A stretch of 64,000 bases of DNA from a plasmid, in the sequence record NZ_CP028351.1; one strand, written 5' to 3'. Positions 28,409 through 52,793 of this stretch are shown here, piece after piece. The notes below the pieces were generated by a model. That model saw only the letters and a program-made list of their open reading frames with translations. It was not told the DNA's origin and did no database searches. How positions within the stretch are numbered: position 1 is the first letter of the stretch; the number at the start of each line of letters is the position of its first letter. A program made the translations under genes and the position numbers.

Positions 28409-28430
28409 CCTGTATTTACCACTGATATGG

Positions 28431-29097: not shown

Positions 29098-29122
29098 TTC
29101 TTTATCAGAGGCAGAGCGTCGT

Positions 29123-29347
29123 ATGGCAATTAACATGGGTAGCACTTACCGGATTCTTGGTTATCAGCCATCGGTAAATTCCGCCTGGCGGCAGAAATTA
29201 CTGACAATGGGCATGCTGCCTGGGGCAGTGGTGGAGGTTATTCGCGTGGCACCTATGGGCGATCCGGTTCAGATTCGTACCCGCCGTGTCAGCCTGGCGG
29301 TGCGACAGCGTGATCTGGCCGACATCATTCTGGAGGAGATCGTCTGA
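29123..29347 (+). CDS. feoA: Ferrous iron transport protein FeoA
   Basis: 74 aa from MAINMGSTYRILGY...AWRQKLLTMGMLPGAVVEVIRVAPMGDPVQIRTRRVSLAVRQRDLADI. Colinear with E. coli FeoA. Its stop overlaps the feoB ATG (ATGA). Confidence 0.8.
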   Translation: MAINMGSTYRILGYQPSVNSAWRQKLLTMGMLPGAVVEVIRVAPMGDPVQIRTRRVSLAVRQRDLADIILEEIV

Positions 29348-34424: not shown

Positions 34425-34695
34425 TATTCTTTCACATTAGTACCGACTTTTTAAAATCAGCCTCTGAATATTTCAGGGGCTAATTTTTATGGTCAAAAAA
34501 TATTTTTATTGCCTCAGCCAGAAATACCTGAAAAAGCCAAAGCCATATTATGAATTAGCTTTGCGAATATTGTAATAACCACGCTATTTACTTCGTTCTG
34601 ACCAACTGCCTATTATCGCTTTCATCGTAAATAAATGTGACGCGCTCAATATCAGCCAATCTGCTTTGACGCCTGTCTCTTTTTCCGGAAGCGCT

Positions 34696-35907: not shown

Positions 35908-35916
35908 GGAGAAAGA

Positions 35917-37107: not shown

Positions 37108-38453
37108 CTCAGAAACAGGTTCTGCTCAACGCGTTTAACATGAATTGTGTCGGCCATATTCATCACGGCATGTGGACGCACCCGGAAGACCGTTCAACCG
37201 AGTTCAATACGCTGGCCTACTGGACTGATCTGGCCCGCCTGCTGGAACGCGGACTGTTCGATGGACTCTTTATTGCGGATATTCTGGGCGTCTATGACGT
37301 TTATCAGCAGGGTATTACGCTAACGGCACGCGAGTCGATTCAGTTGCCGGTCAACGATCCGCTGATGCTGGTTTCGGCTATGGCGGGCGTCACGCAGCAT
37401 CTTGGCTTCGCCGTGACCGCGAATCTCAGTTATGAAGCACCTTTTCCTTTTGCCCGCCGTCTTTCCACACTCGACCATCTGACTCAGGGACGGATAGGCT
37501 GGAACATCGTCACCGGCTACCTGGACAGCGCCGCCCGTGCCATGGGAAACAAACAGCTGCTGGCACACGATGAGCGCTATGCACAGGCGGATGAGTTTCT
37601 CGATGTCAGTTATCAGCTATGGGAAGGAAGCTGGCAGGATGATGCGCTGGTTGTCGATCGCCCGAATCGTCTTTACGCAGACGCCACGAAAATTCATCCG
37701 GTCAGGCATCAGGGTGAATTTTATCAGGTTGAAGGCTATCACCTCAGCAGCCCGTCACCCCAGCGTACGCCGTTACTGTTTCAGGCCGGCACCTCTGCAC
37801 GCGGGATTCAGTTTGCTGCGCGTCATGCCGAATGCACTTTTGTTAACGCAGCGACACCCGCAGCGATGCACCAGCAGACTCAGCGGCTGCGACAGGCCGC
37901 AGTTGAAGCAGGTCGACGTGCAGATGATTTGCGCATCTTCATGGGTGTCGGCGTCATCGTCGCCCCGACAGAGCGTGAAGCACAGGAGAAACACCGCAGT
38001 TATCTTGAATATGCCAGCCCGGAAGCAGGCATTGCCCATTTCTCCAGTTCCATTGGTCTCGATCTGGCCGCCTTTGAGCTCGACGAGCCCATTATCAGCG
38101 GGGAGACCCGGGCTATTGAATCGGTCAGTAAAGCCTACAGCGGCTGGACTCGTCGCCGTCTGCTGGAGCAGCATGCGATGGGCAGTCGCTATCCACTCAT
38201 AATTGGTAATCCCGCGCAGGTCGCGGACGCGCTGCTGCACTGGATGGATGAAGGCGACATTGACGGCTTTAATCTGACCCGCATTCTGAACCCGCAGAGC
38301 TACCGCGACTTTATCGATTTAGTTGTACCTGAACTCCAGCAGCGCGGGCGCTATAAAACGGCTTATCAGCCCGGTTCACTACGCCACAAAATTTTCCAGC
38401 AGGATCGCCTGCCCGAACGTCACCCGGCGGCTCGCTGGCGTCATCCCGCCTGA
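37104..38453 (+). CDS. LLM-class flavin-dependent monooxygenase, NtaA/SnaA/DszA family
   Basis: 449 aa. N-terminus LLNAFNMNCVGHIHHGMWTHPEDRS...YWTDLARLLERGLFDGLFIADILG is diagnostic of the nitrilotriacetate-monooxygenase / DszA family. Translationally coupled to the preceding sfnB. Confidence 0.8.
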   Translation: MTQKQVLLNAFNMNCVGHIHHGMWTHPEDRSTEFNTLAYWTDLARLLERGLFDGLFIADILGVYDVYQQGITLTARESIQLPVNDPLMLVSAMAGVTQHLGFAVTANLSYEAPFPFARRLSTLDHLTQGRIGWNIVTGYLDSAARAMGNKQLLAHDERYAQADEFLDVSYQLWEGSWQDDALVVDRPNRLYADATKIHPVRHQGEFYQVEGYHLSSPSPQRTPLLFQAGTSARGIQFAARHAECTFVNAATPAAMHQQTQRLRQAAVEAGRRADDLRIFMGVGVIVAPTEREAQEKHRSYLEYASPEAGIAHFSSSIGLDLAAFELDEPIISGETRAIESVSKAYSGWTRRRLLEQHAMGSRYPLIIGNPAQVADALLHWMDEGDIDGFNLTRILNPQSYRDFIDLVVPELQQRGRYKTAYQPGSLRHKIFQQDRLPERHPAARWRHPA

Positions 38454-38486
38454 CCTCATTGATCTATTTAACCTCAAGGAATCACC

Positions 38487-39296
38487 ATGACACGCTCAAA
38501 AACACTACGCGCCGCACTGGGCGGCTTGCTGCTGACCCTCAGTGCCGCGGCGACCGCAGCGAACTATTCCGGCCCGCTCAAAGTGGGCACCACCGCCGCG
38601 TTTGCCCCGCCGCTGGAGACCGCCGTCGCTGAAGCAAAGAAGCAGGGACTGGATGTTGAACTTGTCGAATTTACCGACTGGACTGCCCCGAATGTCAGCG
38701 TGGAAAATGGCGATATCGACGTCAATCTGTTCCAGCACAAGCCGTTTCTGGAGAATGCTAATCAGTCCGGCGGCTTCCACCTGGTCGCTTATGCGCCAGC
38801 CATCATCAATAACATTGGTCTTTATTCCAAAAAACACAGCGCGATTGATCAGGTTCCCGAAGGCGGCACCGTTGCTATCGCCAACGATCCGATTAATGGC
38901 GCACGCGGATTATTGCTGCTGCAGAAGGCGGGGCTGATTACGCTCAAACCGGGTGTGGGACTGAAAGCAACCGTTGATGACATCGTCAGTAACCCTAAAA
39001 AGCTGAAAATTATCGAAGTAGAAGCGGTACAGCTCTCGCGCTCGCTTGAAGAAGTCGACCTGGCGCAGGGTTATCCACACTATCTGCGTCTGGCAAAAAC
39101 GATTGATCCCAATAAGGCACTGCTGTTCGACGGGCTGGAGCACCCGGAATATGTCATTCAGTTCGTAATCCGTCAGGGTCATCAGGACGATCCGCGACTG
39201 GCGAAGTTTGTTGATATCTATCAGCACTCTCCGGTAGTCCGCGCCAGCCTCGACAATTTCTATGGCAAACTCTATCAGCCAGGCTGGAGCCAGTAA
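38487..39296 (+). CDS. MetQ/NlpA-family ABC transporter substrate-binding protein
   Basis: 269 aa. Signal peptide with an Ala-rich cleavage site and no lipobox Cys. Fold looks like methionine-binding protein MetQ. Confidence 0.75.
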   Translation: MTRSKTLRAALGGLLLTLSAAATAANYSGPLKVGTTAAFAPPLETAVAEAKKQGLDVELVEFTDWTAPNVSVENGDIDVNLFQHKPFLENANQSGGFHLVAYAPAIINNIGLYSKKHSAIDQVPEGGTVAIANDPINGARGLLLLQKAGLITLKPGVGLKATVDDIVSNPKKLKIIEVEAVQLSRSLEEVDLAQGYPHYLRLAKTIDPNKALLFDGLEHPEYVIQFVIRQGHQDDPRLAKFVDIYQHSPVVRASLDNFYGKLYQPGWSQ

Positions 39297-39298
39297 TC

Positions 39299-40399
39299 AT
39301 GGTCAGCCTGAGCATCCCTGAGACGTCGGCATTGTCCGATGCCGCTACGCGCCATACCAGCGGTGCCTCACACGTCATCATTGAAGCATTAAGTAAACGC
39401 TATCCCGGCCAGTCTGTGGATGCCCTGCGCAATATTAATCTCGGGATCCATCGCGGAGAAATATTCGGCATCATTGGCCGCAGCGGCGCGGGAAAATCTA
39501 CGCTCATCCGCTGCCTTAATCGTCTGGAAGAACCGACTGCCGGACGCATCGTGATCGATGGCACCGATATCAGCGCGTTTAACGCGCGGCAGCTGGTCGA
39601 ATGGCGGCGCAGCACCGGCATGATTTTCCAGCACTTCAATCTGCTGTCGGCCAAAACCGTACGGCAGAATATTGAGCTACCGCTAAAAGTGGCAGGCGTG
39701 CCTGCTGCCGTGCGGGCGCGCAAAGTGGATGAGCTGCTGGCGCTGGTCGGGCTGGAGGCACGGCAACACGCCTGGCCCGCACAGCTTTCCGGTGGACAGA
39801 AACAGCGCGTCGGTATTGCGCGTGCGCTGGTCCACGATCCGGAACTACTGCTGTGCGATGAAGCGACATCAGCACTCGACCCCGAAACGACACGCTCAAT
39901 TCTGGCGCTGCTTAAAAAGATCAATCAGCAACACCATATTACCATTGTGCTGATCACCCATGAGATGGACGTCGTTCATGACCTCTGCCACAACGTTGCG
40001 GTAATCGATCAGGGTGAAATCATTGAGCGCGGCCCGGTCTGGCAGGTTTATAGCGATCCGCAGCAGGAGACAACGCGCCAGCTGCTGAACCCCAATCACC
40101 AGGCTCTGCCAGAGTCGGTCGGCACACGCCTGACTGCCCACCGGCAACATCATCAATCCCGTCTGTTGGTGCGGTTACGCTACACCGGGCAGGGTGCACA
40201 ACCCGATATCGGTGCGCTGAGTGCAGAGATCGCGGGCGAAATCACCCTGATTTACAGCGCTATCGAGTGGGTTGACAGCAAACCCACCGGCCAGTTGTTG
40301 CTCCTGCTGGATGCCCGACACGAGGCGCAATCCGTGACAACTCAACTGGCGCACATCGCCGATCGACTGGAGGTATTAGGTTATGTCACCGGCTATTGA
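39299..40399 (+). CDS. MetN-type ABC transporter ATP-binding protein (with C-terminal NIL/C2 regulatory domain)
   Basis: 366 aa. GRSGAGKSTLIRCLNRLE, LSGGQKQRVGIARAL, LLLCDEATSALDP. The C-terminal ~100 aa end in ...LEVLGYVTGY like MetN. Confidence 0.85.
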   Translation: MVSLSIPETSALSDAATRHTSGASHVIIEALSKRYPGQSVDALRNINLGIHRGEIFGIIGRSGAGKSTLIRCLNRLEEPTAGRIVIDGTDISAFNARQLVEWRRSTGMIFQHFNLLSAKTVRQNIELPLKVAGVPAAVRARKVDELLALVGLEARQHAWPAQLSGGQKQRVGIARALVHDPELLLCDEATSALDPETTRSILALLKKINQQHHITIVLITHEMDVVHDLCHNVAVIDQGEIIERGPVWQVYSDPQQETTRQLLNPNHQALPESVGTRLTAHRQHHQSRLLVRLRYTGQGAQPDIGALSAEIAGEITLIYSAIEWVDSKPTGQLLLLLDARHEAQSVTTQLAHIADRLEVLGYVTGY

Positions 40400-41033
40400 A
40401 CGTTTATGGGTCGCCTTTCTGGATACGCTGCTGATGGTAGGCGTCTCCTCTGCGCTCGCGCTTGCGCTGGGCTTACCAATGGCGGTGATTCTGGTGGTCA
40501 GCGGACGCGGCGATCTTTTTCCCAGCCCACTACTTAATCGGGTGCTGGGCTGGGTGGTTAACCTCTTTCGCTCCATCCCATTTCTGATCCTGATGGTGGC
40601 GTTAATTCCCTTTACCCGCTGGATTGTGGGAACCACCTATGGCGTTTGGGCAGCCGTCGTACCGCTTACCCTGGCGGCCACCCCGTTTTTTGCCCGTATT
40701 GCGGAGGTCAGCCTGCGTGAAGTTGATAAAGGACTGACCGAAGCGGCGCAGGCCATGGGATTTCATCGCTGGCATATTATCTGGCATGTGCTGCTGCCGG
40801 AAGCGCGGCCAGGCATCGTCAGCGGTTTTACCATCACGCTGGTGACGATGATTAACGCGTCAGCGATGGCCGGCGCCATCGGTGCAGGAGGATTAGGGGA
40901 TCTGGCGTATCGTTATGGTTATCAGCGGTTTGATATGCAGGTAATGGTGACAGTTATTGTGGTGCTGGTCGCGCTGGTGACGTTGCTTCAGTTGTGCGGT
41001 GACCGGCTGTCGCGACGGCTGAATCACCGCTAA
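40383..41033 (+). CDS. MetI-type ABC transporter permease
   Basis: 216 aa polytopic membrane protein with the EAA-loop region (AAQAMGFHRWHIIWHVLLPEARPGI). Overlaps the ATPase gene end. Confidence 0.85.
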   Translation: MSPAIERLWVAFLDTLLMVGVSSALALALGLPMAVILVVSGRGDLFPSPLLNRVLGWVVNLFRSIPFLILMVALIPFTRWIVGTTYGVWAAVVPLTLAATPFFARIAEVSLREVDKGLTEAAQAMGFHRWHIIWHVLLPEARPGIVSGFTITLVTMINASAMAGAIGAGGLGDLAYRYGYQRFDMQVMVTVIVVLVALVTLLQLCGDRLSRRLNHR

Positions 41034-41039
41034 ACGCGT

Positions 41040-41061
41040 AAGGCCGGGATCACCCGGCCTT
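41040..41061. terminator. Bidirectional terminator between the convergent metI-like and sfnB genes
   Basis: AAGGCCGGG-ATCA-CCCGGCCTT, a perfect 9-bp GC-rich hairpin in the 34-bp gap between convergent stop codons. Confidence 0.5.
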
Positions 41062-41067
41062 ACTGTA

Positions 41068-42285
41068 TTATGACGCTTCGCCGTTGCCGATCTGCCAGAT
41101 AAACGTCGGATCGTTGCCGTTTACCTCCCATTCACCCACATTGCGGATTTTGTAAATCACCGGGTTGTGTGATGACACCGTGCGGGCGTTGCGCCAGTGT
41201 CGGTCCAGCGCCTTGCTGACGCGGGTATCGGACGCGCCCAGCGCATTAAAGAACTCCGTGGCGGCTCGGGTTACTAACTCCACCGCGACCACCTGCGCCC
41301 GGGCAGACTCCACCTCTGCCTGAACGTTCGCCGCGTGAAGATCTGCTTCATTGGCACCGCTCAGTTGCAGTTCAAATGCCCGTTGCAGTGAGTGAGTCGC
41401 CCGATCAACGGCGGCTTCAGCGGCCCAGGTCCAGCTGCTGATCTGACCGACCACCTGCAGCACCTGCACATCCTGCTTAACCTGAGGCGCATTGCCGTGG
41501 CTGTAAATCCGTTTACGCTGCGCAACCCCCTGTGACGCATCACGCACTACGGCCCGGCCTATACCCGCCAGCGTGGCTAATAACACATGCTGATAAAATG
41601 CGGTCTGATAGCGAAAGCGCTCACTGAAATCATAAACGTGTGGCTGCTCCACACGGGCATGATGAAAGCGTGTGGTGCCACTGCCGGTCAGCCGCTGCCC
41701 GAAACCATCCCAGTCGTCATCACGTTCCACCTCATTCTGATGCGTGTTCACCAGCGCGATGACGTCGCGGCCGTTGTCCGTGCGCTGCGCATAGACATCA
41801 ATCCAGTCCGCATAGAGCGTGCCGGTGCTGTAAAACTTCTCACCGCTGATCCGCCATTCTCCCGCATCGGGTGAGACCTGGGTGTTGACCTCACCCAGCT
41901 TAACCGCCCCGATTTCACTCCAGCCACTGCCCACCAGCTCGCCATCCACAAAACGGCGGAACCAGCGCCGTCGATCCTCACTCTCCGGCTGGTTCAGACG
42001 GTCTTCGATAAAGGCGAAGTGCGCGCGCAGTGCCTGCGGCAGATTTGAATCCGCTTCGGCCAGCGTCGTCAGCAGGGAGAAGAGCTGCGGCAGCGAGACG
42101 CCGAAGCCGCCTTCTTCTTTGGGGATGCGCAGGGTGCCGAACCGCGCCTCTTTCAGCCAGCGGATCGGCTCATGCAGGAGAGTGCGATCAATTTCACGCG
42201 CGGCGGCGCCTTCAGCAATACGGTTAAAGAGTGGCCGGAACTGTTCGGTCAGCGCGGCAAATTCAGTACGGGTTAATTCAGACAT
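41068..42285 (-). CDS. SfnB/DszC-like sulfur-acquisition oxidoreductase (paralog 3)
   Basis: 405 aa from MSELTRTEF (AGGAG RBS). C-terminus LDRHWRNARTVSSHNPVIYKIRNVGEWEVNG. Confidence 0.75.
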   Translation of the reverse strand: MSELTRTEFAALTEQFRPLFNRIAEGAAAREIDRTLLHEPIRWLKEARFGTLRIPKEEGGFGVSLPQLFSLLTTLAEADSNLPQALRAHFAFIEDRLNQPESEDRRRWFRRFVDGELVGSGWSEIGAVKLGEVNTQVSPDAGEWRISGEKFYSTGTLYADWIDVYAQRTDNGRDVIALVNTHQNEVERDDDWDGFGQRLTGSGTTRFHHARVEQPHVYDFSERFRYQTAFYQHVLLATLAGIGRAVVRDASQGVAQRKRIYSHGNAPQVKQDVQVLQVVGQISSWTWAAEAAVDRATHSLQRAFELQLSGANEADLHAANVQAEVESARAQVVAVELVTRAATEFFNALGASDTRVSKALDRHWRNARTVSSHNPVIYKIRNVGEWEVNGNDPTFIWQIGNGEAS

Positions 42286-43738
42286 GATCTTCTCCTGTTG
42301 CAGGTTGTTCATCAATGTCCTGTCGGGTCGGTTCAAACCGGATAATCAACAGGAAAATAATCGGAATAAGGGCGGCGAGAGAGACGATCCAGAACATGTT
42401 GGTGCCATAACGGGCCTGCAAAATGGGCAGGATAAATAGCGCCAGTGCACTGCCGATACCAGAGAGCGAGCGACTGAAGCCAACACCGGTCGCGCGAATG
42501 TGGGTCGGATAGGAGAGCGCCGGATAGATCATCAACTGCGCGCCGGGACCGAACCCTTCGGCAAACAGCCAGAGTCCCAGCATCAGCACGGCAAACACCA
42601 CACCGGCAGTGGCCTGTGGATGACCGATCAGCGCCAGCGAGATCAGCGCGATAAATTGCAGGGCAAAACCCGCAATCGCCACATGCCTGGAAGGGAACTT
42701 CCATGCCAGTCGCATCCCCAGCAGGCCGCCGGTAAAGGCGAACAGTGCATTCAGCCCCAGTGAGGCGGAGATGGTTTCAAACACGCCCGCGCCCAGGAAT
42801 TGCGCCAGGATAGAGGGCAGGAAGAAAGCAATGGCGGTGTACTCAAATGCGATACAGACGTTCATTACTGCGCTGACGATCGTGCGTTCGAGGTAAGGCT
42901 TCTGAAACAGCACGCGGAAACTCACTTTCGGGGCCGCTTTCACGGTTTCGGTTTTTTCAGGCTGCTCTTCATGCGCAATAATGCCGTAGGAGTCGCGCAG
43001 GATACGAACTGCACCGCTCAGGTCTCCCTGATTGGCTGCCCACAGCGGTGACTCATTCATGAACTTGCGGCGCACCGCGATAATGAGCAGGGCCGGTACC
43101 GCGCCAAACAGCAGCGAGGCGCGCCATAACCAGTCGATGTGTTCAGCTGGCAGCAGGAAATAGAGCGCAAAAATAATAAAGAAGCAGGCAGATGATGCGG
43201 CATACCACATCGGGCACCAGGCCGCGAGGCGCGACGCTTTATTGCCTTTGCCGGAGAATTTAGAGAACTCCGCCAGGTAGGCCATGGCAACCGGCAGATC
43301 GATCCCGACCCCGATGCCCATCAGAAAACGCGCCCCAATCAACACCCAGACGTTGGGTGCGAGACCCGCCGCGATGGCAGAGACCACAAAGAACAGCATG
43401 TCCGCCATAAACACCGAGTAGCGGCCATATTTATCGGTGAGCCATCCGCCGACCAGATTGCCGACGATGGTGCCGATCATAATTGAAGAGGTCACCAGTC
43501 CGGTCAGTACCGGGGTTAAGCCAAACTCTTTCACCACATCGTCAATACCATAGGAGAGCGTGGTGAGATCGTAGGCGTCAAGAAATACACCGCCCAGCGC
43601 CAGGAACACAATCCAGCGGGCGTAGCTGTTTTTCTCCGTATTACTGTTGATTAGCCGGGCCACATCACTCACCGAACGAACCGGCGTGGAGTGAGGCGGC
43701 GGGGCGGTCAGGGTGTTGTCAATCTCTAATGTACTCAT
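42278..43738 (-). CDS. MFS transporter
   Basis: 486 aa from MSTLEI (GAGGA RBS). About 12 TM helices and MFS motifs (GWLTDKYGRY). The stop lies 4 nt before the sfnB3 start. Confidence 0.75.
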   Translation of the reverse strand: MSTLEIDNTLTAPPPHSTPVRSVSDVARLINSNTEKNSYARWIVFLALGGVFLDAYDLTTLSYGIDDVVKEFGLTPVLTGLVTSSIMIGTIVGNLVGGWLTDKYGRYSVFMADMLFFVVSAIAAGLAPNVWVLIGARFLMGIGVGIDLPVAMAYLAEFSKFSGKGNKASRLAAWCPMWYAASSACFFIIFALYFLLPAEHIDWLWRASLLFGAVPALLIIAVRRKFMNESPLWAANQGDLSGAVRILRDSYGIIAHEEQPEKTETVKAAPKVSFRVLFQKPYLERTIVSAVMNVCIAFEYTAIAFFLPSILAQFLGAGVFETISASLGLNALFAFTGGLLGMRLAWKFPSRHVAIAGFALQFIALISLALIGHPQATAGVVFAVLMLGLWLFAEGFGPGAQLMIYPALSYPTHIRATGVGFSRSLSGIGSALALFILPILQARYGTNMFWIVSLAALIPIIFLLIIRFEPTRQDIDEQPATGEDHV

Positions 43739-44001
43739 CATATCCTCGTTATTATATTCAGCAGGTAACGAGGTTTTTATAGGCATTTAAGGCATAGTTA
43801 ACAACCAACAAATAACGATAACTATTTCAATATATTCAATAAGTTAATCATTAAAAGATGACCACGACAGAAGCCGGATGAATAGCAGGATTCATCCGGT
43901 ACGAATTAAAGCATTTTTCTTTACCTGGCCTGAAACCGGCGCGCTTCTTTAGTCGTTAATAAATCTGTAAAGCGATGACTGAGACTATTAACCGGCAGAT
44001 T

Positions 44002-45414
44002 TCATCCTGATATTTCAGCGCTATATATCTGCGTTTCTGCGTCAGCATGGCGGCGGTAACCGGCACCCGGATGTGGCAACGCCAGCCGCGGTCCCTTTCC
44101 GAACAACTTTTCACGCAGCGTGCCGGGCTGATAGTTCTGCTTGTAGACGCCGCGCTTTTGCAGTTCCGGCACCAGCAGTTCCACCACGTCAGTGAAGGTT
44201 TCATGCGTCACAGCGTAGGCGAGGTTAAATCCGTCAACGTCGGTCTCTTCAACCCAGCTCTGCAGTTCATCCGCTACGGTTTCGGCGCTGCCCACCAGCA
44301 ACGGGCCAAAACCGCCAATGCCCACCCAGTCAGCCAGCCCCTGCACCGTCCACTGACGAGTGGGATCGGCGGTGGAGAAGGTCTCGACCGCCGACTGAAT
44401 GGCGTTGGTATGCAGATGCTTCAGTACCTGATCCGGCTGATACTGCCCGAAATCGATACCGGTCCAGCCCGAGATGAGCGCCAGCGCGCCTTCGTAACTG
44501 ACATAGCTTTTGTACTCCTGCCATTTCGCCTGCGCCGCCAGGTCGGTTTCACCCACAATCACCGTCTGCAGATTGAAGATCAGGATGGAACGCGGGTCAC
44601 GTCCCGCCTCAGCGGCCCTGCGGCGAATATCTGCCACAGTTTTCTTCAGCAGTACTTTCGACGGTGCCGCGACAAATACACATTCAGCATGCTCCGCTGC
44701 AAAGGCCTTACCGCGGCTGGAGGCACCGGCCTGGTATAGCACCGGCGTGCGCTGCGGTGACGGCTCGCAAAGATGAATACCCGGCACCTGGAAAAACGTT
44801 CCCTGATGGTTAATCGGATGGATTTTGTTGGGGTCGCTGAATATATGACGTTCACGATCGCGCAGGACAGCGTCGTCTTCCCAGCTTCCCTCCAGCAGCT
44901 TATAGATAACCTGCAGATACTCATCGGCGTAGTCGTAGCGCGCATCGTGATCGGTCTGAGCCTGATGCCCGATATTGCGTGCGCCACTTTCCAGGTAGGA
45001 GGTGACAATATTCCAGCCAATACGGCCTTTGGTCAGATGATCCAGGGTCGAGATCCGCCGCGCAAACGGGTAGGGGTGTTCAAACGACAGCGAGGCGGTC
45101 AGGCCAAAGCCCAGGTGTTCCGTCACCATGGCCATCGGCGTGATTAACGCCAGCGGATCGTTTACCGGTACCTGTGTAGCCTGACGGATGGCGGCATGGT
45201 TATTACCGTTGAGCACGTCATAGACACCCAGCACATCAGCAATAAACAGCCCATCAAATTTACCGCGTTCCAGCAGGCGCGCTAAATCGGTCCAGTACGC
45301 CAGATCTTTATACTGCCATGAGCGGTCACGCGGATGCGCCCACAAGCCGGGTGACTGATGACCAACACAGTTCATATCGAAAGCATTCAGGCGAATTTCA
45401 CGTTGCGATGACAT
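44002..45414 (-). CDS. LLM-class flavin-dependent monooxygenase, NtaA/SnaA/DszA family (second copy)
   Basis: 470 aa from MSSQREIRLNAFDMNCVGHQSPGLWAHPRDRS (AGGAG RBS). Paralog of 37104..38453. Confidence 0.8.
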   Translation of the reverse strand: MSSQREIRLNAFDMNCVGHQSPGLWAHPRDRSWQYKDLAYWTDLARLLERGKFDGLFIADVLGVYDVLNGNNHAAIRQATQVPVNDPLALITPMAMVTEHLGFGLTASLSFEHPYPFARRISTLDHLTKGRIGWNIVTSYLESGARNIGHQAQTDHDARYDYADEYLQVIYKLLEGSWEDDAVLRDRERHIFSDPNKIHPINHQGTFFQVPGIHLCEPSPQRTPVLYQAGASSRGKAFAAEHAECVFVAAPSKVLLKKTVADIRRRAAEAGRDPRSILIFNLQTVIVGETDLAAQAKWQEYKSYVSYEGALALISGWTGIDFGQYQPDQVLKHLHTNAIQSAVETFSTADPTRQWTVQGLADWVGIGGFGPLLVGSAETVADELQSWVEETDVDGFNLAYAVTHETFTDVVELLVPELQKRGVYKQNYQPGTLREKLFGKGPRLALPHPGAGYRRHADAETQIYSAEISG

Positions 45415-45482
45415 AGCGACTCCTGAGCGGATGCGGCAATCGCTTGCCGCCCACCTTTTAATATGTGTTTTATAAGGAAGAT

Positions 45483-46895
45483 TCAGTAAGTGAGTGAGCC
45501 GGGACATCGCTCGCTGACAGGCAGGGATAGGGCATTCAGCAGTTGCCGTGCAACAGACTCGGCATGTTCCGCCACCTGCGGTAATCCCATCAGCTCGCCA
45601 AAGCGACCCCGTGCGGCAGGCCCGGCAACATACAGTCCGGGATTCGCTTCATCGTTCACATTCAGCGTCTGAGACAGTGCATTAACCTGGATCCCCAGCG
45701 CCAGCGGGTCAGGCTGGATAACGCCATCGCCATGGAGCTGACGCAGCAGCGCATTGCTGTTAAGCAGCGCGTTGTGTGCAGGGCCGGTGGTGACAATAAC
45801 TTTCTCCACCTCCAGCCTGTGCGATTGCGCGCCACGCAGGCGCAGCGTTAGCCGGAGCGTTGCGCCATCCGATTCAGCGGCGATAAGGCGCGCCGCCAGC
45901 AGAGTCAGCTGACCGCTGGCCTGCTGTTGGCTGAGGATCTGGCTAACCTGCGGCGCAATCCGGTAGCGATGAACATCCCACCAGGGGCGCAGATGATGCA
46001 GAAAGCGCTGCTGCTCATGCAGCGACAGACTCTGCCAGATGCGCTGACCGTTACGGCGGATATCATCCAGCACCAGCTGCCAGGGCAGATTCAGCGCCGC
46101 CGCCTGTTTAACCTCCTGTCGCACACGATGTAGCCAGCCGCGCGCGGTGGCGGATTGCGGCTGACTGTAATCCAGAGCGTAGGTCTCATTGTTGCCACTC
46201 AGGTTGGCACGCGGCAGCTGGCCACGACGTGAGAAGACGGTAATCTTTCCACGGTGCTGCTGACGATGCAGCGACGCCACCATATCGGACATGGTCAGCC
46301 CTGAACCGATAATCGCCACCCGATCGTCAGGGACGACCTGCGCCAGCGCGTCGCGCTGCCAGGGATTGGCAATCAAACCCGGATGGCCCTGTAGCGGCCT
46401 CAGCAGAGCAGGCAGATCCGGCGGGGGATGGCTGGTCGCCAGCACCACCTGATCGGCATGAATCTGCTGCCCGGAGGCCGTGGTCACCACGCCATTCTTA
46501 AAGGCAACCGCACTGTCACGCAGATGGCTCAGTTTCACCGGTGAGTGCTGCTGCTGATGAACAAACTGCGCATTGACCCAGCGTCCGAACTCACCGCGTT
46601 GCGGGTAGACGTTGCCGTCATGCCACAGCGCTTCCGGATCGGCCCTGAAGTCGGCAGAGGCGCGATAGTCGCGATCGAAAACACCCTCTTCATCACCGGC
46701 GAGCTGCATTCTGCCGGCCGGCACATTAATGCGGTGGGCCGGATCGGTGGTACCGTATGCCACGCCCTGCGCCAGCTGTGCGCGAGGTTCAATCACCGTC
46801 ACCTGTAATCCCGCCTGGCCAGCGCGGGCCAGATGGATCGCCAGCGCAGTGCCGGTGAACCCGCCGCCGATAATGACAATCTGCTGTTGTGACAT
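45483..46895 (-). CDS. FAD/NAD(P)-binding oxidoreductase (YdhS-like)
   Basis: 470 aa from MSQQQIVIIGGGFTGTALA, a Rossmann GxGxxG dinucleotide-binding N-terminus. Confidence 0.65.
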   Translation of the reverse strand: MSQQQIVIIGGGFTGTALAIHLARAGQAGLQVTVIEPRAQLAQGVAYGTTDPAHRINVPAGRMQLAGDEEGVFDRDYRASADFRADPEALWHDGNVYPQRGEFGRWVNAQFVHQQQHSPVKLSHLRDSAVAFKNGVVTTASGQQIHADQVVLATSHPPPDLPALLRPLQGHPGLIANPWQRDALAQVVPDDRVAIIGSGLTMSDMVASLHRQQHRGKITVFSRRGQLPRANLSGNNETYALDYSQPQSATARGWLHRVRQEVKQAAALNLPWQLVLDDIRRNGQRIWQSLSLHEQQRFLHHLRPWWDVHRYRIAPQVSQILSQQQASGQLTLLAARLIAAESDGATLRLTLRLRGAQSHRLEVEKVIVTTGPAHNALLNSNALLRQLHGDGVIQPDPLALGIQVNALSQTLNVNDEANPGLYVAGPAARGRFGELMGLPQVAEHAESVARQLLNALSLPVSERCPGSLTY

Positions 46896-46920
46896 AAGCG
46901 AGCCTTTTTCTGTTAACTGA

Positions 46921-48093
46921 CTAGCTGGCGCTGGCCTGTTTAGCCGGGCGACGGTCGCCGCCGATGGTTTCACCAAACGGACCTGTATTGACGCTGCGCT
47001 GTTTCTTTTCGGCGTTGGCGGCCAGCGGCAACAACGGCATTACCAGCTCCGCAAAGCGGTGTGCCTCTTCAAGATGCGGATAGCCGGAGAAGATAAAGTT
47101 CTCAATGCCCAGTGCCTGATACTCCCGGATGCGATCGGCAACCTGCTGCGGATTGCCGACCAGCGCAGTCCCTGCACCGCCGCGCACCAGGCCAACGCCC
47201 GCCCAGAGATTGGGACCGATGCGCAGGCTCTCACGCGACCCCTGATGCAGGGCACTCATCCGCGCCTGACCGGCGGAGTCCATGCGGGCAAAGATTTTCT
47301 GCGCGGCGGCGATAGTCTCTTCATCCAGATGAGAAATCAGCCGATCGGCCGCCGCCCAGGCTTCCTCTTCCGTTTCACGTACAATGACATGTAAGCGGAT
47401 GCCATAAGAGAGCGTGCGGCCATTCTCCTGTGCTCGCTGACGAACCACCGCCAGCTTCTCCGCGACCTGTTCAACCGGCTCGCCCCACGTCAGATAGGTG
47501 TCGATCTGATTCGCCGCAACGTCGATAGCAGCCTCAGATGAGCCACCGAAATAGAGTGGCGGACCGTCTTCCTGAACCGGCGGGAAGAGGATCTCGGCAC
47601 CTTCCACGCGAATATGTTCGCCTTCAAAGTCTACCTTCTCGCCTTTCAGCAGGCGGGAGTAAACCTCAAGAAATTCTTTGGTCACCTGATAGCGCTCTTC
47701 ATGACTCAGGAAGATGCCGTCACCTTTGTTCTCTACCGGATCACCACCCGTGACCACGTTGATCAGCAACCGGCCGCCGGAGAGACGGTCCAGCGTCGCC
47801 GCCATCCGCGCCGCCAGGCTGGGCGGTTGCAGGCCGGGACGCACGGCCACTAAATAGCGCAGCTTTTTGGTGATCGGTGCCAGTGCCGAGGCGACCAGCC
47901 ATGAATCCTCGCAGCTTTTACCGGTCGGGATTAACACACCGTAGTAGCCCAGATTATCTGCCGCCAGCGCAACCTGCTGTAAATAGTGTAAATCGACTGC
48001 TCTGCCGCCTTCGGTGGTACCCAGATAGCGCCCGTCGCCGTGGGTAGGCAGAAACCAGAAGAGGTTGAGGTTTTCCTGTGTCGCATGACTCAT
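46921..48093 (-). CDS. ssuD: Alkanesulfonate monooxygenase-like LLM (SsuD family)
   Basis: 390 aa. Colinear with recalled E. coli SsuD: [114 protein letters not shown]. Confidence 0.85.
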
Positions 48094-48162
48094 TAGCAGA
48101 TTCCTTTATAACGATATTAAAATTTATCACATAGGGTTAATCCCTTTTGTTATATAGCCTCT

Positions 48163-48179
48163 AGCAGGATGCGTGCCAC
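48163..48179 (-). promoter_or_regulatory. Sigma-54 (-24/-12) promoter for the ssuD-like operon
   Basis: Minus strand reads GTGGCACG-CATC-CTGCT, against the consensus TGGCACG-N4-TTGCW. GG and GC are correctly spaced. The predicted TSS is about 55-60 nt before the ssuD-like ATG. Confidence 0.6.
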
Positions 48180-48241
48180 TGCGATGAAATATTTTTATTA
48201 TCAAAATTCAATAACTTATCGTTTTTGTGGCAGACGCTAAT

Positions 48242-48289
48242 CTGCTGCATTCGCAACAGGCATAGTTGCATCCTGCTGCATTGGCAACA
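48242..48289. repeat. Tandem 17-bp direct repeats (candidate enhancer-binding sites) between the sigma-54 promoter and the activator gene
   Basis: CTGCTGCATTCGCAACA (48242-48258) and CTGCTGCATTGGCAACA (48273-48289) sit 31 bp apart. Each embeds TTGC/GCAA half-palindromes (GCAAC-N7-GTTGC). They lie about 75-125 bp upstream of the sigma-54 -24 element. Confidence 0.4.
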
Positions 48290-48367
48290 ATCTGACTCGT
48301 TCCGCCTCTCGTTTCGGCGTTAGCGGCGCGGTATGGTCATGGTTTTCCCGTTCATCCGGTAAATGAG

Positions 48368-50257
48368 ATGCAGATATCCAGTCCTGAGTTAATTGACCCC
48401 GCATCGCGCGCCTTTAAAAGCGTGCTGGATCAGCTCGCGCCCACCGATGCGACGGTACTGATCATCGGTGAAACCGGCACCGGCAAAGAGGTGATGGCGC
48501 GCTATCTGCATCACCATAGCGCCCGCAGCCGGCAGCCTTTTCTGGCGGTTAACTGCGGCGCACTTACTGAGAGCCTGGCGGAGTCGGAGCTGTTTGGTCA
48601 TGAGAAGGGTGCCTTTACCGGCGCACAGGACAGGCATCGTGGCTGGTTTGAGGCGGCAGAGGGCGGCACGCTGCTGCTGGATGAGATTGGTGAGCTAAGC
48701 CCGTCGCTGCAGGTGAAGCTGCTACGCGTGTTGCAGGAGCGTGAGATTACCCGCGTCGGATCGTCCAGGCCGGTAAAAGTCAATGTGCGGGTCATTGCCG
48801 CGACCAACCGGGATCTGGCGGTGGCTATCCGTGAACGGCGATTCCGCGAAGATCTCTACTACCGGCTGAATGTGGCCAGCGTCACACTGCCGCCGCTGCG
48901 CCAGCGCTGCGAAGATATTCCGGTGCTGGCCAGTCACTTCCTGCAGATCTATGCGCGCCGTCTTGGTCGTCCTCAGCTGCGCCTCAGTGATGAAGCCATG
49001 ACAGTGCTGATGAACTACAGCTGGCCGGGCAACATCCGTGAACTGGAGAACACGCTGCACAACGCCGTGCTGCTCAGCAAAACCTCACTGGTCACGCCGC
49101 AGCAGCTGCGGCTAAGCCCTCTTGCGGGGAGCGACCTGCCGCAGGGAGAGGAGGCGCTTGATCAGTTTTTACGCCAGCAGATGCAGCAGAGTGATACACC
49201 GCTCTATCCCCGGGTAATTGCTGCGCTGGTGAAAAATGCGCTGGAACTCACCCAGGGTAATCAGTTACAGGCGGCCGCGCTGCTGGGTATCAGCCGACAT
49301 ACATTGCGCACACAGCTGGGACATCTGGGGGTGATTAAACCGCGCCGCGGTTCAGTGCGTCAGCGCGACATATCGACTGGTCAGCAGCCTGAGCGGGAGC
49401 GGGAACTGCGTATTGGTTATCAGAAATTTGGCAACCTTGGCATTCTGAAAGCCCGCCAGTCGCTGGAGCAGCAGCTGGCCGGGCAGGGTGTCAGCGTCAT
49501 GTGGAGTGAATTTCCTGCGGGTCCGCAGCTTCTGCATGCACTGAGCAATAAGGAGATCGATTTCGGGACCACCGGTGAAGTTCCCCCCTTGTTTGCGCAG
49601 GCCAGCAACAGTCCCATGGTCTATGTTGCCTGGGAACCTGCCGCCCCGCAAAGCGTGGCGCTGCTGGTGCCTAACAGCAGCCCGGTTAAGCAGATTGGCG
49701 ATCTCAGAGGCAAACGTATTGCCGTGAATCGCGGCTCCAACGTTCACTATCTGTTGTTGCAGATTCTGGATGAGGCGGGTTTAGCGCTGGATGATGTGCG
49801 CATTGTCTATGCCCCGCCTAAATATCCGCTGACGCCCAGCGATCTCAACGCGGTGGATGCCTGGATGATGTGGGATCCGTTACTCAGCGATGCGGAGAAC
49901 AGCGGAGAGTTCAGGGTGATTGCGGATGGCACAGGCCGGGTCAATAACCATCAGTTTTACCTGGCTGAGCGCGGATTTTCGACGCACTCTGGCGATCTGT
50001 TACAGGTTCTGCTTAGCGCACTGGGGCAGACCGGCCGCTACATTGATGCGCATCGTGCTGAAGCTGCCGGGCTGCTCTCAACGGAACTCGGCATCTCTGC
50101 AACCTCACTGATGCACGCCTTAGCCCGGCGCAGCCATCAGACCCAAAGAATGAACCTGGCCATCATCCGGGAACAGCAGACTATCGCCGACCGCTTCTAT
50201 GCGCTGGGGTTATTCAGTCGCGCTATTCGCGTACGCGAGTCGGTCTGGCATCCATAG
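48368..50257 (+). CDS. Sigma-54-dependent transcriptional activator (SfnR-like AAA+ and Fis-HTH, no N-terminal sensor) fused to a C-terminal SsuA/TauA-like solute-binding domain
   Basis: 629 aa. Residues 1-~250 are the sigma54-interaction AAA+ domain (GETGTGKEV, ESELFGHEKGAFTGA). The HTH is QAAALLGISRHTLRTQLGHLG. After a ~30-aa linker the last ~290 aa (from LRIGYQKFGNLGILKARQ...) are clearly paralogous to the adjacent periplasmic SsuA-like protein (compare VNIGFQKANIFALLKYRG / EFPAGPQ / DLKGKRVA / GSDVNYLL / VDAW.IWDP) but carry no signal peptide. Confidence 0.8.
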   Translation: MQISSPELIDPASRAFKSVLDQLAPTDATVLIIGETGTGKEVMARYLHHHSARSRQPFLAVNCGALTESLAESELFGHEKGAFTGAQDRHRGWFEAAEGGTLLLDEIGELSPSLQVKLLRVLQEREITRVGSSRPVKVNVRVIAATNRDLAVAIRERRFREDLYYRLNVASVTLPPLRQRCEDIPVLASHFLQIYARRLGRPQLRLSDEAMTVLMNYSWPGNIRELENTLHNAVLLSKTSLVTPQQLRLSPLAGSDLPQGEEALDQFLRQQMQQSDTPLYPRVIAALVKNALELTQGNQLQAAALLGISRHTLRTQLGHLGVIKPRRGSVRQRDISTGQQPERERELRIGYQKFGNLGILKARQSLEQQLAGQGVSVMWSEFPAGPQLLHALSNKEIDFGTTGEVPPLFAQASNSPMVYVAWEPAAPQSVALLVPNSSPVKQIGDLRGKRIAVNRGSNVHYLLLQILDEAGLALDDVRIVYAPPKYPLTPSDLNAVDAWMMWDPLLSDAENSGEFRVIADGTGRVNNHQFYLAERGFSTHSGDLLQVLLSALGQTGRYIDAHRAEAAGLLSTELGISATSLMHALARRSHQTQRMNLAIIREQQTIADRFYALGLFSRAIRVRESVWHP

Positions 50258-50352
50258 CGTTTTTTTAGCTAAGCATCGAACATTTCATCGCTAAGCGCTT
50301 CAAGCCGCGTTTGTTATGTTGCGCAGACAACAACCAGACTCAGGAACGAGAG

Positions 50353-51300
50353 ATGAAAAAAGTTTTACTCAGCGCTTTGATTATTGCCGCCCAGGCGGGT
50401 TTCGCGTTCAGCACCCAGGCAGCAGAAAAACCCGAGACAGTGAATATCGGTTTTCAGAAAGCCAATATTTTCGCGCTGCTGAAGTATCGCGGCACGCTGG
50501 ATCAGGAATTTAAAAAGCAGGGCATTGCGGTGCACTGGATTGAGTTCCCGGCCGGACCGCAGATGCTGGAGGGCTTAAACATCGGCAGTATCGATCTGGC
50601 CGCTACCGGCGACGCGCCACCGACGTTCGCGCAGGCCGCACAGGCCGATCTGGTTTATCTGGGACACTCGCCAGCTAACCCAAAAACCGAAGCGATTGTG
50701 GTGCCCGCTGACTCCCCGATTAAAAGCGTGGCGGATCTCAAAGGCAAGCGTGTGGCGCTGAACAAAGGCTCTGACGTTAACTATCTGCTGGTCACCGCGC
50801 TGGAGCAGGCAGGGCTGACCTATAAAGACATTACGCCGGTCTATCTCCCCCCTGCTGATGCGCGCGCCGCTTTCCAGCGCGGCGCGGTGGATGCCTGGGT
50901 CATCTGGGATCCCTACTACGCTGAAGTGGAAACTAATGCCCACGCGCGGCTGATTAAAAATGCTGAAGGGCTGGTGCCACACTACACCTTCTATCTTGCC
51001 AGTCGTAAGTTCGCGGAGCGCTATCCACACATCGCTTCTGAGGTGGTGGATGAGCTGGGTTCACTGAGTCAGTGGGCTAATCAAAATCAGGAAGAAGCCG
51101 CAAAAATCATGTCCACCTCAACCGGCCTGCCGCAGCCGATCTGGCAGCGCGCGCTGGCAAGGATGCCGTTTGGCGCGGAGCGGATGACGCCAGAAGTCTT
51201 CACCCAGCAGCAGGCGCTGGCAGATACCTTTACCCGGATTGGTCTGTTGCCGGTGAAAGTTGATATCCGCAGCGCGACATGGTCGCAGGATAAGAAGTAG
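50353..51300 (+). CDS. Periplasmic aliphatic sulfonate/NitT/TauA-family ABC substrate-binding protein (SsuA-like), orphan
   Basis: 315 aa from MKKVLLSALIIAAQAGFAFSTQA (AGGAACGAGAG RBS). SsuA/TauA-type SBP fold. No cognate permease or ATPase genes are adjacent. Confidence 0.8.
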   Translation: MKKVLLSALIIAAQAGFAFSTQAAEKPETVNIGFQKANIFALLKYRGTLDQEFKKQGIAVHWIEFPAGPQMLEGLNIGSIDLAATGDAPPTFAQAAQADLVYLGHSPANPKTEAIVVPADSPIKSVADLKGKRVALNKGSDVNYLLVTALEQAGLTYKDITPVYLPPADARAAFQRGAVDAWVIWDPYYAEVETNAHARLIKNAEGLVPHYTFYLASRKFAERYPHIASEVVDELGSLSQWANQNQEEAAKIMSTSTGLPQPIWQRALARMPFGAERMTPEVFTQQQALADTFTRIGLLPVKVDIRSATWSQDKK

Positions 51301-51659
51301 GCAAACATCAGTCGGATGTTTATCAGGATAAATGCCGCCTGACATCTGATGATAATCAGGCCCGGTAAATAGCAACAGGCGGCCTCGCTAATCCTGTTCC
51401 AGCATTAGCCCGGGACTTTACAGCAGGATGAGGATAAGCAGAACGGCAGAGAGAGATGAACGTTTTTTTAGCGAAGCGGTTTTACATTTCAGAGAGTTAC
51501 ATGATATTTCTTTTGACAGGCTGCGCCATAAGCTGTTCTACACTTACACTTTCAGTCACGCCGTTTGACTGAAAAAGCAGCATCACGAAGAAGGTGGTGA
51601 CGGCAATGCATCACGCAGTCGCCACCCTCAAAACTGATCATGCCTGTGAGGTAAACACT

Positions 51660-52793
51660 ATGAAAGCAGTTGTCTATAACGGACCTTTTGACGTTTCAGT
51701 CAAAGATGTCCCGGATCCGAAAATCGTTCGTCCCACCGATGTGATTGTCCGTATTACCACCACCAATATCTGCGGTTCTGACTTACATATGTACGAAGGG
51801 CGAACCAGCTTTGAGCAGGGTCGCATCTTCGGCCATGAGAATCTGGGCCAGGTTGTTGAAATTGGTAGCGGTGTAGATCGGATTAAAGTCGGTGATTATG
51901 TCTGCCTGCCCTTTAATGTCGGCTGCGGCTTCTGTGAAAACTGCGAGAAGGGGTTAACCGGTTACTGTCTTACGGCAAATCCGGGTACGGCCGGTGCCGC
52001 CTATGGCTTTGCGGAGATGGGCGAATGGGAGGGTGGACAGGCGGAGTTACTTCGTGTTCCTTTTGCTGACTTTAACTGCCTGGTACTGCCGCCGGATGCG
52101 GCAGAAAAGGAGGAAGACTACGTTATGCTGTCCGACATCTTCCCCACCGGCTGGCATGCCACTGAGCTGGCAGGCTTGCGCCCTGGCGAGAGTGTTGCCA
52201 TTTACGGCGCTGGCCCGGTCGGCTTAATGGCGGCGCACTCGGCCATGATTAAAGGCGCATCACAGGTCTTTGTGGTCGATACCCATCCGGACAGACTGGC
52301 GTTAGCCGAACAGCTTGGCGCTGTGGCAATTAATGGCGTGGGCGATGAGGCGGTCAATAAAATCCTCGAACTCACCGATGGACGCGGCACGGATTGCGGT
52401 TGCGAATGCGTGGGTTATCAGTGCTGCAATAAACATGGACACGAAGATAACTCCGCCACGCTGAACAGCCTTGTTGCATCAACTAAAGCCACGGGCGGTA
52501 TTGGTACGGTAGGCGTTTTTGTTCCTCAGGATCCGGGCGGGGCAACCGAACTGGCTAAAGAGGGCAAAGTGCCGTTCGATTTTGGTACGTTCTGGTTTAA
52601 AGGTCAGTCAATGAAGACCGGCCAGTGTAACGTGAAAGCCTACAACCGCCAGCTCGCAAGGCTTATCCATCAGGGCAGAGCCAATCCGTCGCAGATTATC
52701 TCGCATCGTCTTGCACTGACAGACGCTCCCGAAGGCTATAAGCATTTTGACAACCGGGATAATGGCTGGACAAAGGTTATCCTGAAACCCTGA
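51660..52793 (+). CDS. fdhA: Glutathione-independent formaldehyde dehydrogenase (Zn-dependent MDR family)
   Basis: 377 aa from MKAVVYNGPFD (GAGG RBS). TNICGSDLHMYEGR, GHENLGQVVE, PFNVGCGFCENCEKGLTGYCL, GGQAELLRVPFADFN and GAGPVGLMAAHSA are colinear with recalled P. putida FdhA. Confidence 0.8.
   Translation: MKAVVYNGPFDVSVKDVPDPKIVRPTDVIVRITTTNICGSDLHMYEGRTSFEQGRIFGHENLGQVVEIGSGVDRIKVGDYVCLPFNVGCGFCENCEKGLTGYCLTANPGTAGAAYGFAEMGEWEGGQAELLRVPFADFNCLVLPPDAAEKEEDYVMLSDIFPTGWHATELAGLRPGESVAIYGAGPVGLMAAHSAMIKGASQVFVVDTHPDRLALAEQLGAVAINGVGDEAVNKILELTDGRGTDCGCECVGYQCCNKHGHEDNSATLNSLVASTKATGGIGTVGVFVPQDPGGATELAKEGKVPFDFGTFWFKGQSMKTGQCNVKAYNRQLARLIHQGRANPSQIISHRLALTDAPEGYKHFDNRDNGWTKVILKP

Follow-up and report, generated by a model that had tools for sequence, protein, structure and literature searches.

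The 274-bp stretch at positions 48094-48367 of a 64,000-nucleotide plasmid sequence (record NZ_CP028351.1; the whole of this sequence is called the window below) is the entire intergenic gap separating two divergent genes, one for an MsuD/SsuD-like monooxygenase on the minus strand, the other for a sigma-54 enhancer-binding protein (EBP) on the plus strand. Judged from its sequence and surroundings, the gap is very probably a sigma-54 enhancer-dependent promoter that drives a minus-strand organosulfur operon starting with the msuD/ssuD-like gene, and the function switched on is most likely methanesulfonate or organosulfur scavenging. The case is made by context and conservation, i.e., an adjacent EBP gene, invariant TGGC and CTGC blocks and conserved repeats, and not by the promoter motif alone. 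The control region, previously unannotated, is an ordinary and well-formed instance of the textbook enhancer-dependent design, and it appears to carry every sequence feature of a sigma-54 promoter with an enhancer except a motif frequency above chance and a clear IHF site. The less ordinary part lies outside 48094-48367 and is the SsuA-type domain built into the activator.

Promoter element and paired dyads

The minus-strand sequence TGGCACGCATCCTGCT (48163-48178) has one mismatch to TGGCACG-N4-TTGCW and the canonical 10-bp gap between its GG and GC, as the first-pass annotation of this DNA had noticed. It is intergenic, has the same orientation as the monooxygenase gene and stops 70 nt short of the ATG at 48093. 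The distance of 55-60 nt from the ssuD-like start given in that annotation does not suit the motif but does suit the predicted transcription start: when the C of the GC is taken as -12, +1 would fall at about 48152 and leave a leader of 59 nt before the ATG. A sigma-70 consensus scan of the minus strand of 48094-48367 detected no promoter of that type. The plus-strand sigma-70-like sequence GTGCCA-17-TATTAT (48173-48201) was rejected as a candidate, since it lies in unconserved sequence and occurs at chance frequency.

Conservation was examined in eight orthologous loci from five genera, namely the window and its counterparts in P. agglomerans, P. eucrina, E. amylovora, T. morbirosei, R. badensis, S. 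liquefaciens and S. marcescens. These were obtained by searching for contigs encoding the EBP; the eight intergenic regions were aligned and invariant columns counted for each region. A contig scan with an EBP alignment (back-translated GETGTGKE pattern) returned 80 generic EBP loci (L001-L080) and no orthologue. The EBP has full-length orthologues in Pantoea, Erwinia, Serratia, Rouxiella, Tatumella and relatives. In all orthologous loci the EBP gene diverges from an msuD/ssuD-like gene over a gap of 272-280 bp, and the FAD/NAD(P) oxidoreductase is the only gene kept beside the monooxygenase gene in all genera. Over the whole alignment 73 of 300 columns are invariant. Within the promoter element this holds for all four columns of the -24 TGGC and four of the five of the -12 CTGCT, and for one of the seven of the spacer between them. 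The geometry is equally constant, with 70-71 nt from the end of the -12 element to the ATG, 63-65 bp from the start of the proximal upstream site to the -24 T and 31-32 bp between the two upstream sites. Two -24/-12 matches elsewhere in these loci are unrelated to the dyad motif described below: TGGCACGTCGGTTGCT in S. liquefaciens (L089, 10149-10164), 5' of amidase and biotin-carboxylase-type genes, and TGGCACAGTTATTGCT in T. morbirosei (L088, 12370-12385), 5' of a CN-hydrolase/amino-acid permease pair.

The upstream sites are the 17-mers CTGCTGCATTCGCAACA (48242-48258) and CTGCTGCATTGGCAACA (48273-48289), which are identical at 16 of 17 positions, start 31 bp apart and occupy the interval 64-111 bp upstream of the -24 T. 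Searching the window for the 17-mer pair gave its two perfect copies and nothing else with fewer than two mismatches (0.76 matches expected at up to three mismatches), and the pair is in itself unusual for the window. The first-pass annotation had the repeats and their spacing right. The GCAAC/GTTGC half-palindromes that it saw in them did not hold up: GTTGC (48265-48269) sits in the 15 unconserved columns between the sites, and the real symmetry is found inside each repeat. Each "direct repeat" is best read as a 16-bp dyad-symmetric operator, TGYTGCA-WW-TGCARCA. The dyads are three helical turns apart and therefore lie on the same face of the DNA. Across the eight loci, 9 of 16 columns are invariant in each of the two putative upstream activator sequences (UAS1, proximal, and UAS2, distal), with the pattern TG..GCA...GC..CA and the family consensus TGYTGCAWWTGCARCA, compared with none of the 15 columns between them. 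Tatumella, Rouxiella and S. liquefaciens have perfect TGCTGCA/TGCAGCA dyads. A single dyad pair is present in each of the 18-kb orthologous loci, and a single one in the 64-kb window, always between the EBP and monooxygenase genes. A perfect 10-nt inverted repeat (48163-48172/48268-48277) is not conserved and was rejected as a functional element.

That the two 17-mers merely reflect a recent local duplication without function, as their near identity in the window might suggest, can practically be dismissed. Both sites are present in all orthologues, the copies diverge more in other genera and yet keep the same invariant positions, and the DNA between the sites is unconserved, so that the alignment already contradicts this explanation. 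It is also very improbable that the -24/-12 element is a poised or cryptic site without regulatory output. Such sites are common; within genes they are numerous and known to be bound in E. coli (PMC4591121), and the window has a sigma-54-like sequence of this kind inside the EBP gene, TGGCGCGCTATCTGCA (48495-48510, plus strand, MARYLH codons), which is identical in three orthologous loci and probably a by-product of coding conservation. The element at 48163-48178, in contrast, is intergenic and correctly oriented, stands at a fixed distance from the start codon and is accompanied by two phased dyads and an adjacent EBP gene, all of which are conserved.

Between promoter and enhancer, the AT content is 79% in the 47 nt adjoining the -24 element, as against 46% in the window, and lies at 65-89% in the spacers of the orthologues. 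Of the 63 spacer columns, only 3 are invariant in the eight loci; it is the composition that is conserved, not the sequence. Within the spacer, 48206-48218 match the IHF consensus weakly, with one mismatch; the corresponding alignment position has one mismatch in three further loci and a perfect match only in S. marcescens. An involvement of IHF at about -60 would be plausible.

On the other side of the dyads, the boxes CCTCTCG and GGTATGGT keep five of seven and three of five columns, respectively, in the eight loci, compared with none of the 18 between them. Positions 48332-48337 offer a TAnnnT -10 candidate with a poor -35, and the consensus sigma-70 scan misses 48305-48337 altogether. This stretch is likely an activator-dependent promoter of the EBP gene. 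The sfnR gene of P. putida is CysB-dependent, and there is in our estimate close to an even chance that the EBP gene is expressed from the boxes at 48305-48337, where sulfate starvation may exert control as it does for sfnR. The dyads lie about 45-90 bp upstream of the -10 candidate and, at glnAp1, NtrC enhancer sites double as operators; the dyads could hence be viewed mainly as autoregulatory operators of the EBP gene's own promoter, a role compatible with that of an enhancer. As their main function this seems unlikely: they do not overlap the candidate -35/-10 region, and every locus keeps them 63-65 bp from the sigma-54 promoter, which speaks for a constraint on their position with respect to the latter.

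The leader of the msuD/ssuD-like mRNA holds two more conserved boxes, one around the predicted +1 (48146-48157, 9 of 12 columns invariant) and one just 5' of the AGGAA Shine-Dalgarno sequence (48104-48117, 10 of 14). They form an inverted CTWTATAAC pair in which the third-position A/T is swapped between the arms in Pantoea relative to the other genera. An RNA structure was considered for these boxes and rejected (consensus energy -0.54 kcal/mol, no covariation, single-sequence z-score -0.24, no Rfam family). The two boxes are possibly a protein-binding pair.

The enhancer-binding protein and its relatives

The product of the divergent gene has every appearance of a bona fide sigma-54 EBP. An AAA+ domain (Sigma54_activat) spans residues 13-250 and a Fis-type helix-turn-helix (HTH_8) residues 287-314, with matches to PF00158 (2.6e-69), PF25601 (AAA lid) and PF02954 (2.4e-07), and the translation contains a Walker A motif (GETGTGKE), the GAFTGA loop and a Walker B motif (LLLDEIGE). 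There is no N-terminal sensor, the AAA+ domain starting at residue 13; the reading frame cannot be extended upstream and its ATG is conserved. The best-scoring NCBIfam model for the AAA+ part is NifA, with 350 bits, far under the cut-off of 529 bits. The nearest relatives devoid of a fused domain are 371-396 aa long, about 53% identical and bear generic names only.

In the proposed mechanism, RNA polymerase-sigma-54 would be held as a closed complex at 48163-48178, where the sequence has the form TGGC-N8-CTGC, while EBP dimers encoded by the divergent gene would bind both dyads (at about -98 and -129) on the same DNA face and assemble into an active AAA+ ring. The AT-rich tract, probably aided by IHF at about -60, would loop this ring onto the promoter, and ATP hydrolysis via the GAFTGA loop would then open the complex, with transcription beginning near 48152. 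The elements, their spacing, the selective way in which they are conserved and the nature of the genes on either side can be read from sequence comparison, and it is from these that we infer binding, looping, dependence on rpoN and the start site. The divergent EBP gene, the selective conservation and the fixed geometry all support the proposal of the first-pass annotation that the repeats are the upstream activator sequences of an EBP acting at the ssuD-like promoter. The layout that it recognized stands; it took dyads for simple repeats, and it did not recognize the adjacent plus-strand gene as encoding the activator.

Residues 343-629 of the EBP make up an SsuA-family substrate-binding domain, which has no signal peptide. 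It matches 2X26, the SsuA of E. coli, over residues 4-287 (E 9e-55), aligns end to end to both 2X26 and 3E4R, reaches 164.4 bits with TIGR01728 (cut-off 163.5) and is 38% identical to the secreted SsuA encoded next door (50311-51300). In X. citri SsuA the sulfonate is coordinated by Gln36, Gly68, Gly86, Ser141 and Trp185 (PMC3839906). Four of these five residues (Gln36, Gly68, Gly86 and Trp185) are kept in the EBP, and in the place of Ser141 it has Asn458, which does not vary among 12 orthologues. Since there is no N-terminal sensor, the alignment to SsuA is end to end, four of the five residues are kept and the domain is 38% identical to its neighbour, a role in sensing a cytoplasmic ligand is reasonable. 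That a sulfonate-type ligand in this domain gates the activity of the EBP is a tentative proposition, to which we give slightly less than an even chance. According to it, methanesulfonate, another alkanesulfonate or a product such as sulfite would bind the C-terminal domain and gate either ring assembly or the ATPase. Equally tentatively, the EBP may act as a one-component sensor of sulfonates, a type so far not described among proteobacterial EBPs, with a cytoplasmic SsuA-type domain after the HTH replacing the N-terminal sensor. Direct induction by the substrate would fit the gene content, because an enzyme of the MsuD type would release sulfite and formaldehyde from methanesulfonate and a formaldehyde-dehydrogenase-like gene is found downstream. 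In the literature, we found no description of an EBP-SsuA fusion, nor of sigma-54 control of sulfonate genes in these genera.

Metagenome contigs were scanned with a deliberately degenerate dyad-pair pattern, which picked up 80 loci, the majority of them repeats of the CAG type or else unrelated palindromes. Six further loci have the dyad pair between an EBP-family sequence (63-81% identity) and an MsuD-like gene (80-88%). The SsuA domain is included in four of them, and the remaining two contigs stop short of it. Upstream sequence was inspected for three of these loci, and all three share the -24/-12 element and the leader boxes. Other contigs from the scan (L111, L117, L121, L124, L138, L145, L147, L155, L160, L170 and L172) carry TGTAGC-N4-GCTACA dyad pairs with the same 32-bp phasing, some with a GCGATCGC core, which look like the operators of a different regulator.

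The AAA+-HTH-SsuA architecture is found, at 39-50% identity and always under generic names, in Methylocystis, in Myxococcota (Sorangium, Pendulispora) and in uncultured lineages. In two distant loci encoding such a fusion, the neighbours are genes for MsuD-like luciferase-like (LLM), ACAD-fold, riboflavin-synthesis (ribBA) and FMN-reductase proteins. In locus L092, the fusion EBP is 50% identical over its AAA+ part and a 62%-identical MsuD homologue diverges from an SfnB-like gene; the gap between these two genes has one TGTTGCTGGAGCAGCA dyad, and the msuD start is preceded, at 32 nt, by CGGCGCG-N4-TTGCG. Pairs of dyads phased at 32 bp also adjoin the EBP gene in three further distant relatives of the EBP (46-54% identity). 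In L093 (Sorangium cellulosum), TGGCACGGGCTGTGCT lies 5' of ribBA and no dyad of the same spacing was found, which is neutral for the motif. The L093 sequence itself, close to the distant EBP-SsuA gene, consists of tandem GGCACGGGCTGTGC repeats (10730-10773) that end in TGGCACGGGCTGTGCT 15 nt before the ribBA start; it may represent a sigma-54 promoter whose transcript would be nearly leaderless. Taken together, the distant loci appear to link this class of dyad to this lineage of EBP and are the sole evidence for such a link that is independent of synteny. The sulfonate-sensor proposal draws support from the fact that the fusion is kept at full length in Enterobacterales, Methylocystis and Myxococcota, with the neighbours just named in the distant loci examined and, in several distant members, the same dyad class.

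A number of observations weigh against an enhancer-dependent sigma-54 promoter at 48094-48367. With at most one mismatch, the -24/-12 motif is matched three times in the 64-kb window against 1.09 expected, and 10 of 100 shuffles reach three; by itself the match is within chance and not diagnostic, and neither of the remaining two matches precedes a gene. At -12 the sequence is CTGC and not TTGC, and both dyads of the window have an imperfect right half, with GCAACA in place of GCAGCA. The IHF-like site is weak, no match within one mismatch having been found at the corresponding alignment position in three of the eight loci, and the sigma-54 model does not account for the two highly conserved leader boxes at +1 and ahead of the Shine-Dalgarno sequence. 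The rpoN gene is not in the window, and its presence in the host is taken from general knowledge of Enterobacterales. Finally, because the eight loci are syntenic, the co-occurrence of the EBP gene and the dyads is not independent evidence of what binds them; the distant loci that address this question are few, and one of them (L092) has a single dyad where 0.13 are expected per locus by chance.

The same motif count, along with the homology of the driven gene to ssuD and the A/T-rich, TATAAC-like conserved boxes near the predicted start, would also suit a sigma-70 promoter controlled by LysR-type CysB/Cbl as for ssuEADCB of E. coli, in which case the -24/-12 element would be fortuitous and the dyads LysR-type operators. 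This is improbable. The GG and GC are invariant across five genera while the spacer drifts, no sigma-70-like promoter was found on the minus strand, the dyads at -98 and -129 are too far upstream for class I or class II activation, and similar dyads recur beside EBP homologues of 46-54% identity. The sigma-54 enhancer-dependent promoter is therefore the interpretation that we retain.

The operon and its plasmid neighbourhood

The features of the control region and of the genes around it are listed in the Table. The monooxygenase exceeds the cut-offs of both NF001939 (659 bits) and TIGR03565 (620 bits) in NCBIfam and is nearer to Pseudomonas MsuD 7JV3 (595 bits) than to E. coli SsuD 1M41 (527 bits). 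The genes at 41068-46976 are probably co-transcribed with it as one operon; no terminator-like hairpin was found in the intergenic gaps of the minus-strand operon before the bidirectional one at 41038-41063. This last is a perfect hairpin with an 11-bp stem, GTAAGGCCGGG-ATCA-CCCGGCCTTAC, situated between two convergent operons, and is likely a bidirectional terminator.

Table. Predicted control elements and annotated genes, with positions in the window
Feature	Position	Strand	Remarks
Sigma-54 (-24/-12) promoter, predicted, TGGCACGcatcCTGCT	48163-48178	minus	GG 48176-77, GC 48164-65
Transcription start, predicted, ~48152	48150-48154	minus	from the -12 GC under standard sigma-54 numbering
5' leader of the msuD/ssuD-like mRNA, predicted	48094-48152	minus	two conserved boxes, inverted CTWTATAAC pair
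AT-rich spacer, promoter to enhancer	48179-48241		IHF-like ATTCAATAACTTA at 48206-48218, centre ~-60
Proximal enhancer site UAS1, predicted, TGCTGCA-tt-cGCAaCA	48243-48258		dyad, centre ~-98
Distal enhancer site UAS2, predicted, TGCTGCA-tt-gGCAaCA	48274-48289		centre ~-129, 31 bp from UAS1
Boxes CCTCTCG and GGTATGGT	48305-48311 and 48330-48337	plus	between dyads and EBP start codon, ~19 bp apart
FMNH2-dependent alkanesulfonate monooxygenase, luciferase-like, MsuD-like	46921-48093	minus	start of the probable operon
FAD/NAD(P)-binding oxidoreductase	45483-46976	minus	probable operon member
NtaA/DmoA-family LLM monooxygenase	44002-45507	minus	probable operon member
MFS transporter	42278-43786	minus	probable operon member
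SfnB-like ACAD-fold oxidoreductase	41068-42336	minus	probable operon member
Sigma-54 enhancer-binding protein (EBP), 629 aa	48368-50257	plus	Pfam/NCBIfam domains
Secreted SsuA paralogue	50311-51300	plus	3' of the EBP gene
Formaldehyde-dehydrogenase-like Zn-dependent alcohol dehydrogenase (Zn-ADH)	51594-52793	plus	3' of the EBP gene and the SsuA paralogue
sfnB operon: two TIGR04022 SfnB genes, NtaA/DmoA LLM, MetQNI-type transporter	34666-41033	plus	

The first-pass annotation had stated that the plus-strand sfnB operon lacks a comparable sigma-54 promoter, and indeed neither a sigma-54 nor a dyad match was found upstream of it. The operon is real, but the gene that directly flanks the control region on the plus strand is the EBP gene. 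Elsewhere in the island, the sequences 5' of 34666 and of the MFS, ssuA and ADH genes were scanned and gave no further sigma-54 promoter or dyad.

Cleavage of methanesulfonate by MsuD-type enzymes yields sulfite and formaldehyde (PMC13352529), and the Zn-ADH, as a formaldehyde dehydrogenase, would fit the cluster by detoxifying the formaldehyde released in this reaction. Its score with TIGR02819 (354 bits) is under the model's cut-off of 637 bits; the RefSeq name of its P. vagans C9-1 counterpart is glutathione-independent formaldehyde dehydrogenase. A sigma-70-like sequence, TTTACA-16-GATATT, lies close to the Zn-ADH gene at 51481-51508.

As a whole, 32030-52793 looks like an organosulfur-acquisition island of about 18 kb, made up of the sfnB operon, the convergent sigma-54 operon and the EBP-ssuA-ADH genes, with a phage-type integrase gene (32030-33067) at its left edge. 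Farther to the left, about 8 kb (21500-29300) contain no open reading frame of at least 200 aa, only short ones on both strands. Plasmid pPag1 of Pantoea vagans C9-1 (NC_014561.1) shares 98.5% identity with the window; its counterparts of the two genes flanking the control region, PVAG_RS00240 (monooxygenase) and PVAG_RS00245 (EBP), bear no annotation beyond "ssuD" and "sigma-54-dependent Fis family transcriptional regulator", respectively.

For the generically annotated loci of Pantoea, Erwinia, Serratia and their relatives, the analysis adds a defined, predicted sigma-54 promoter and an operator motif (TGYTGCA-WW-TGCARCA, paired at 31-32 bp), the latter providing a handle for regulon prediction and for the design of reporters or biosensors. 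It would indicate that part of organosulfur scavenging in these Enterobacterales runs via sigma-54, as in Pseudomonas, and not by the CysB/Cbl sigma-70 scheme of E. coli. Moreover, a precise putative DNA target and output can now be tied to an uncharacterised subfamily of SsuA-fused EBPs, so that one can ask whether a substrate-binding-protein fold senses a ligand for an AAA+ activator. If it does, and the ligand is a sulfonate, the promoter would respond to the substrate itself, beyond sulfate starvation alone.

Relation to known systems

The closest functional analogue appears to be the control of the Pseudomonas sfn and msu genes, since SfnR together with sigma-54 controls sfnFG, sfnAB (sfnA) and msuEDC in P. 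putida and P. aeruginosa (Endoh 2003, 2005; Habe 2007; Lundgren 2019, as cited in PMC8234197 and PMC13352529). As there, an EBP without an N-terminal regulatory domain is encoded beside organosulfur monooxygenase genes, which it putatively activates; the first gene is MsuD-like and the cluster holds SfnB-family and NtaA/DmoA-family genes, whose regulation would follow the same lines. The host is a member of the Enterobacterales, unlike in the sfn system, and the locus is plasmid-borne. SfnR is a two-domain protein that ends after the HTH. The EBP described here adds an SsuA-type domain of about 290 residues at that point, the comparison being one of general domain layout and not of sequence, and because the two-domain layout does not apply to a protein of 629 aa with an SsuA domain at 343-629, the activator was not filed as SfnR. 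A literature search for an SfnR binding site gave nothing usable that could be set beside the dyads.

The paradigm for the arrangement of the sites is the NtrC enhancer at glnAp2, in which two dyads about three helical turns apart, some 100-140 bp upstream of the -24/-12 element, form a platform for oligomerisation of the AAA+ activator. Paired and phased dyads upstream of a -24/-12 promoter are common to both systems. The dyads differ in sequence (TGYTGCA-N2-TGCARCA here, TGCACCA-N3-TGGTGCA for NtrC), and the present activator is no response regulator. NifA recognizes UAS of the form TGT-N10-ACA, with an IHF site at nif promoters. The 16-bp dyads share this outline, which is perfect in sites of P. 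eucrina, Tatumella and S. liquefaciens and reads TGC-N10-ACA in the window, and the spacer is AT-rich, with a weak IHF-like match. In contrast to the NifA sites, an inner GCA...TGC is also invariant here, and there is neither a GAF domain nor a nif context, so that the likeness is to be taken as a lead only.

In E. coli, ssuEADCB and tauABCD are activated by CysB and Cbl at sigma-70 promoters (for background, see PMC4501297). The SsuD-family enzyme is homologous and the purpose, scavenging of sulfonate sulfur, is the same, whereas the class of promoter and the family of the activator would both be different in the plasmid locus. With regard to the architecture of the activator, no characterised EBP with an SsuA-type domain after a Fis-type HTH was found in the literature. 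Partial parallels exist among EBPs that depart from the usual order of domains: PspF and HrpR/S have no sensor domain, and LevR-type proteins have their regulatory domains C-terminal to the AAA+ module. Like these, the EBP at 48368-50257 lacks an N-terminal regulatory domain and has its putative regulatory domain at the C-terminus, but in its case this domain has a type II periplasmic-binding-protein fold (SsuA) and follows a Fis-type HTH.

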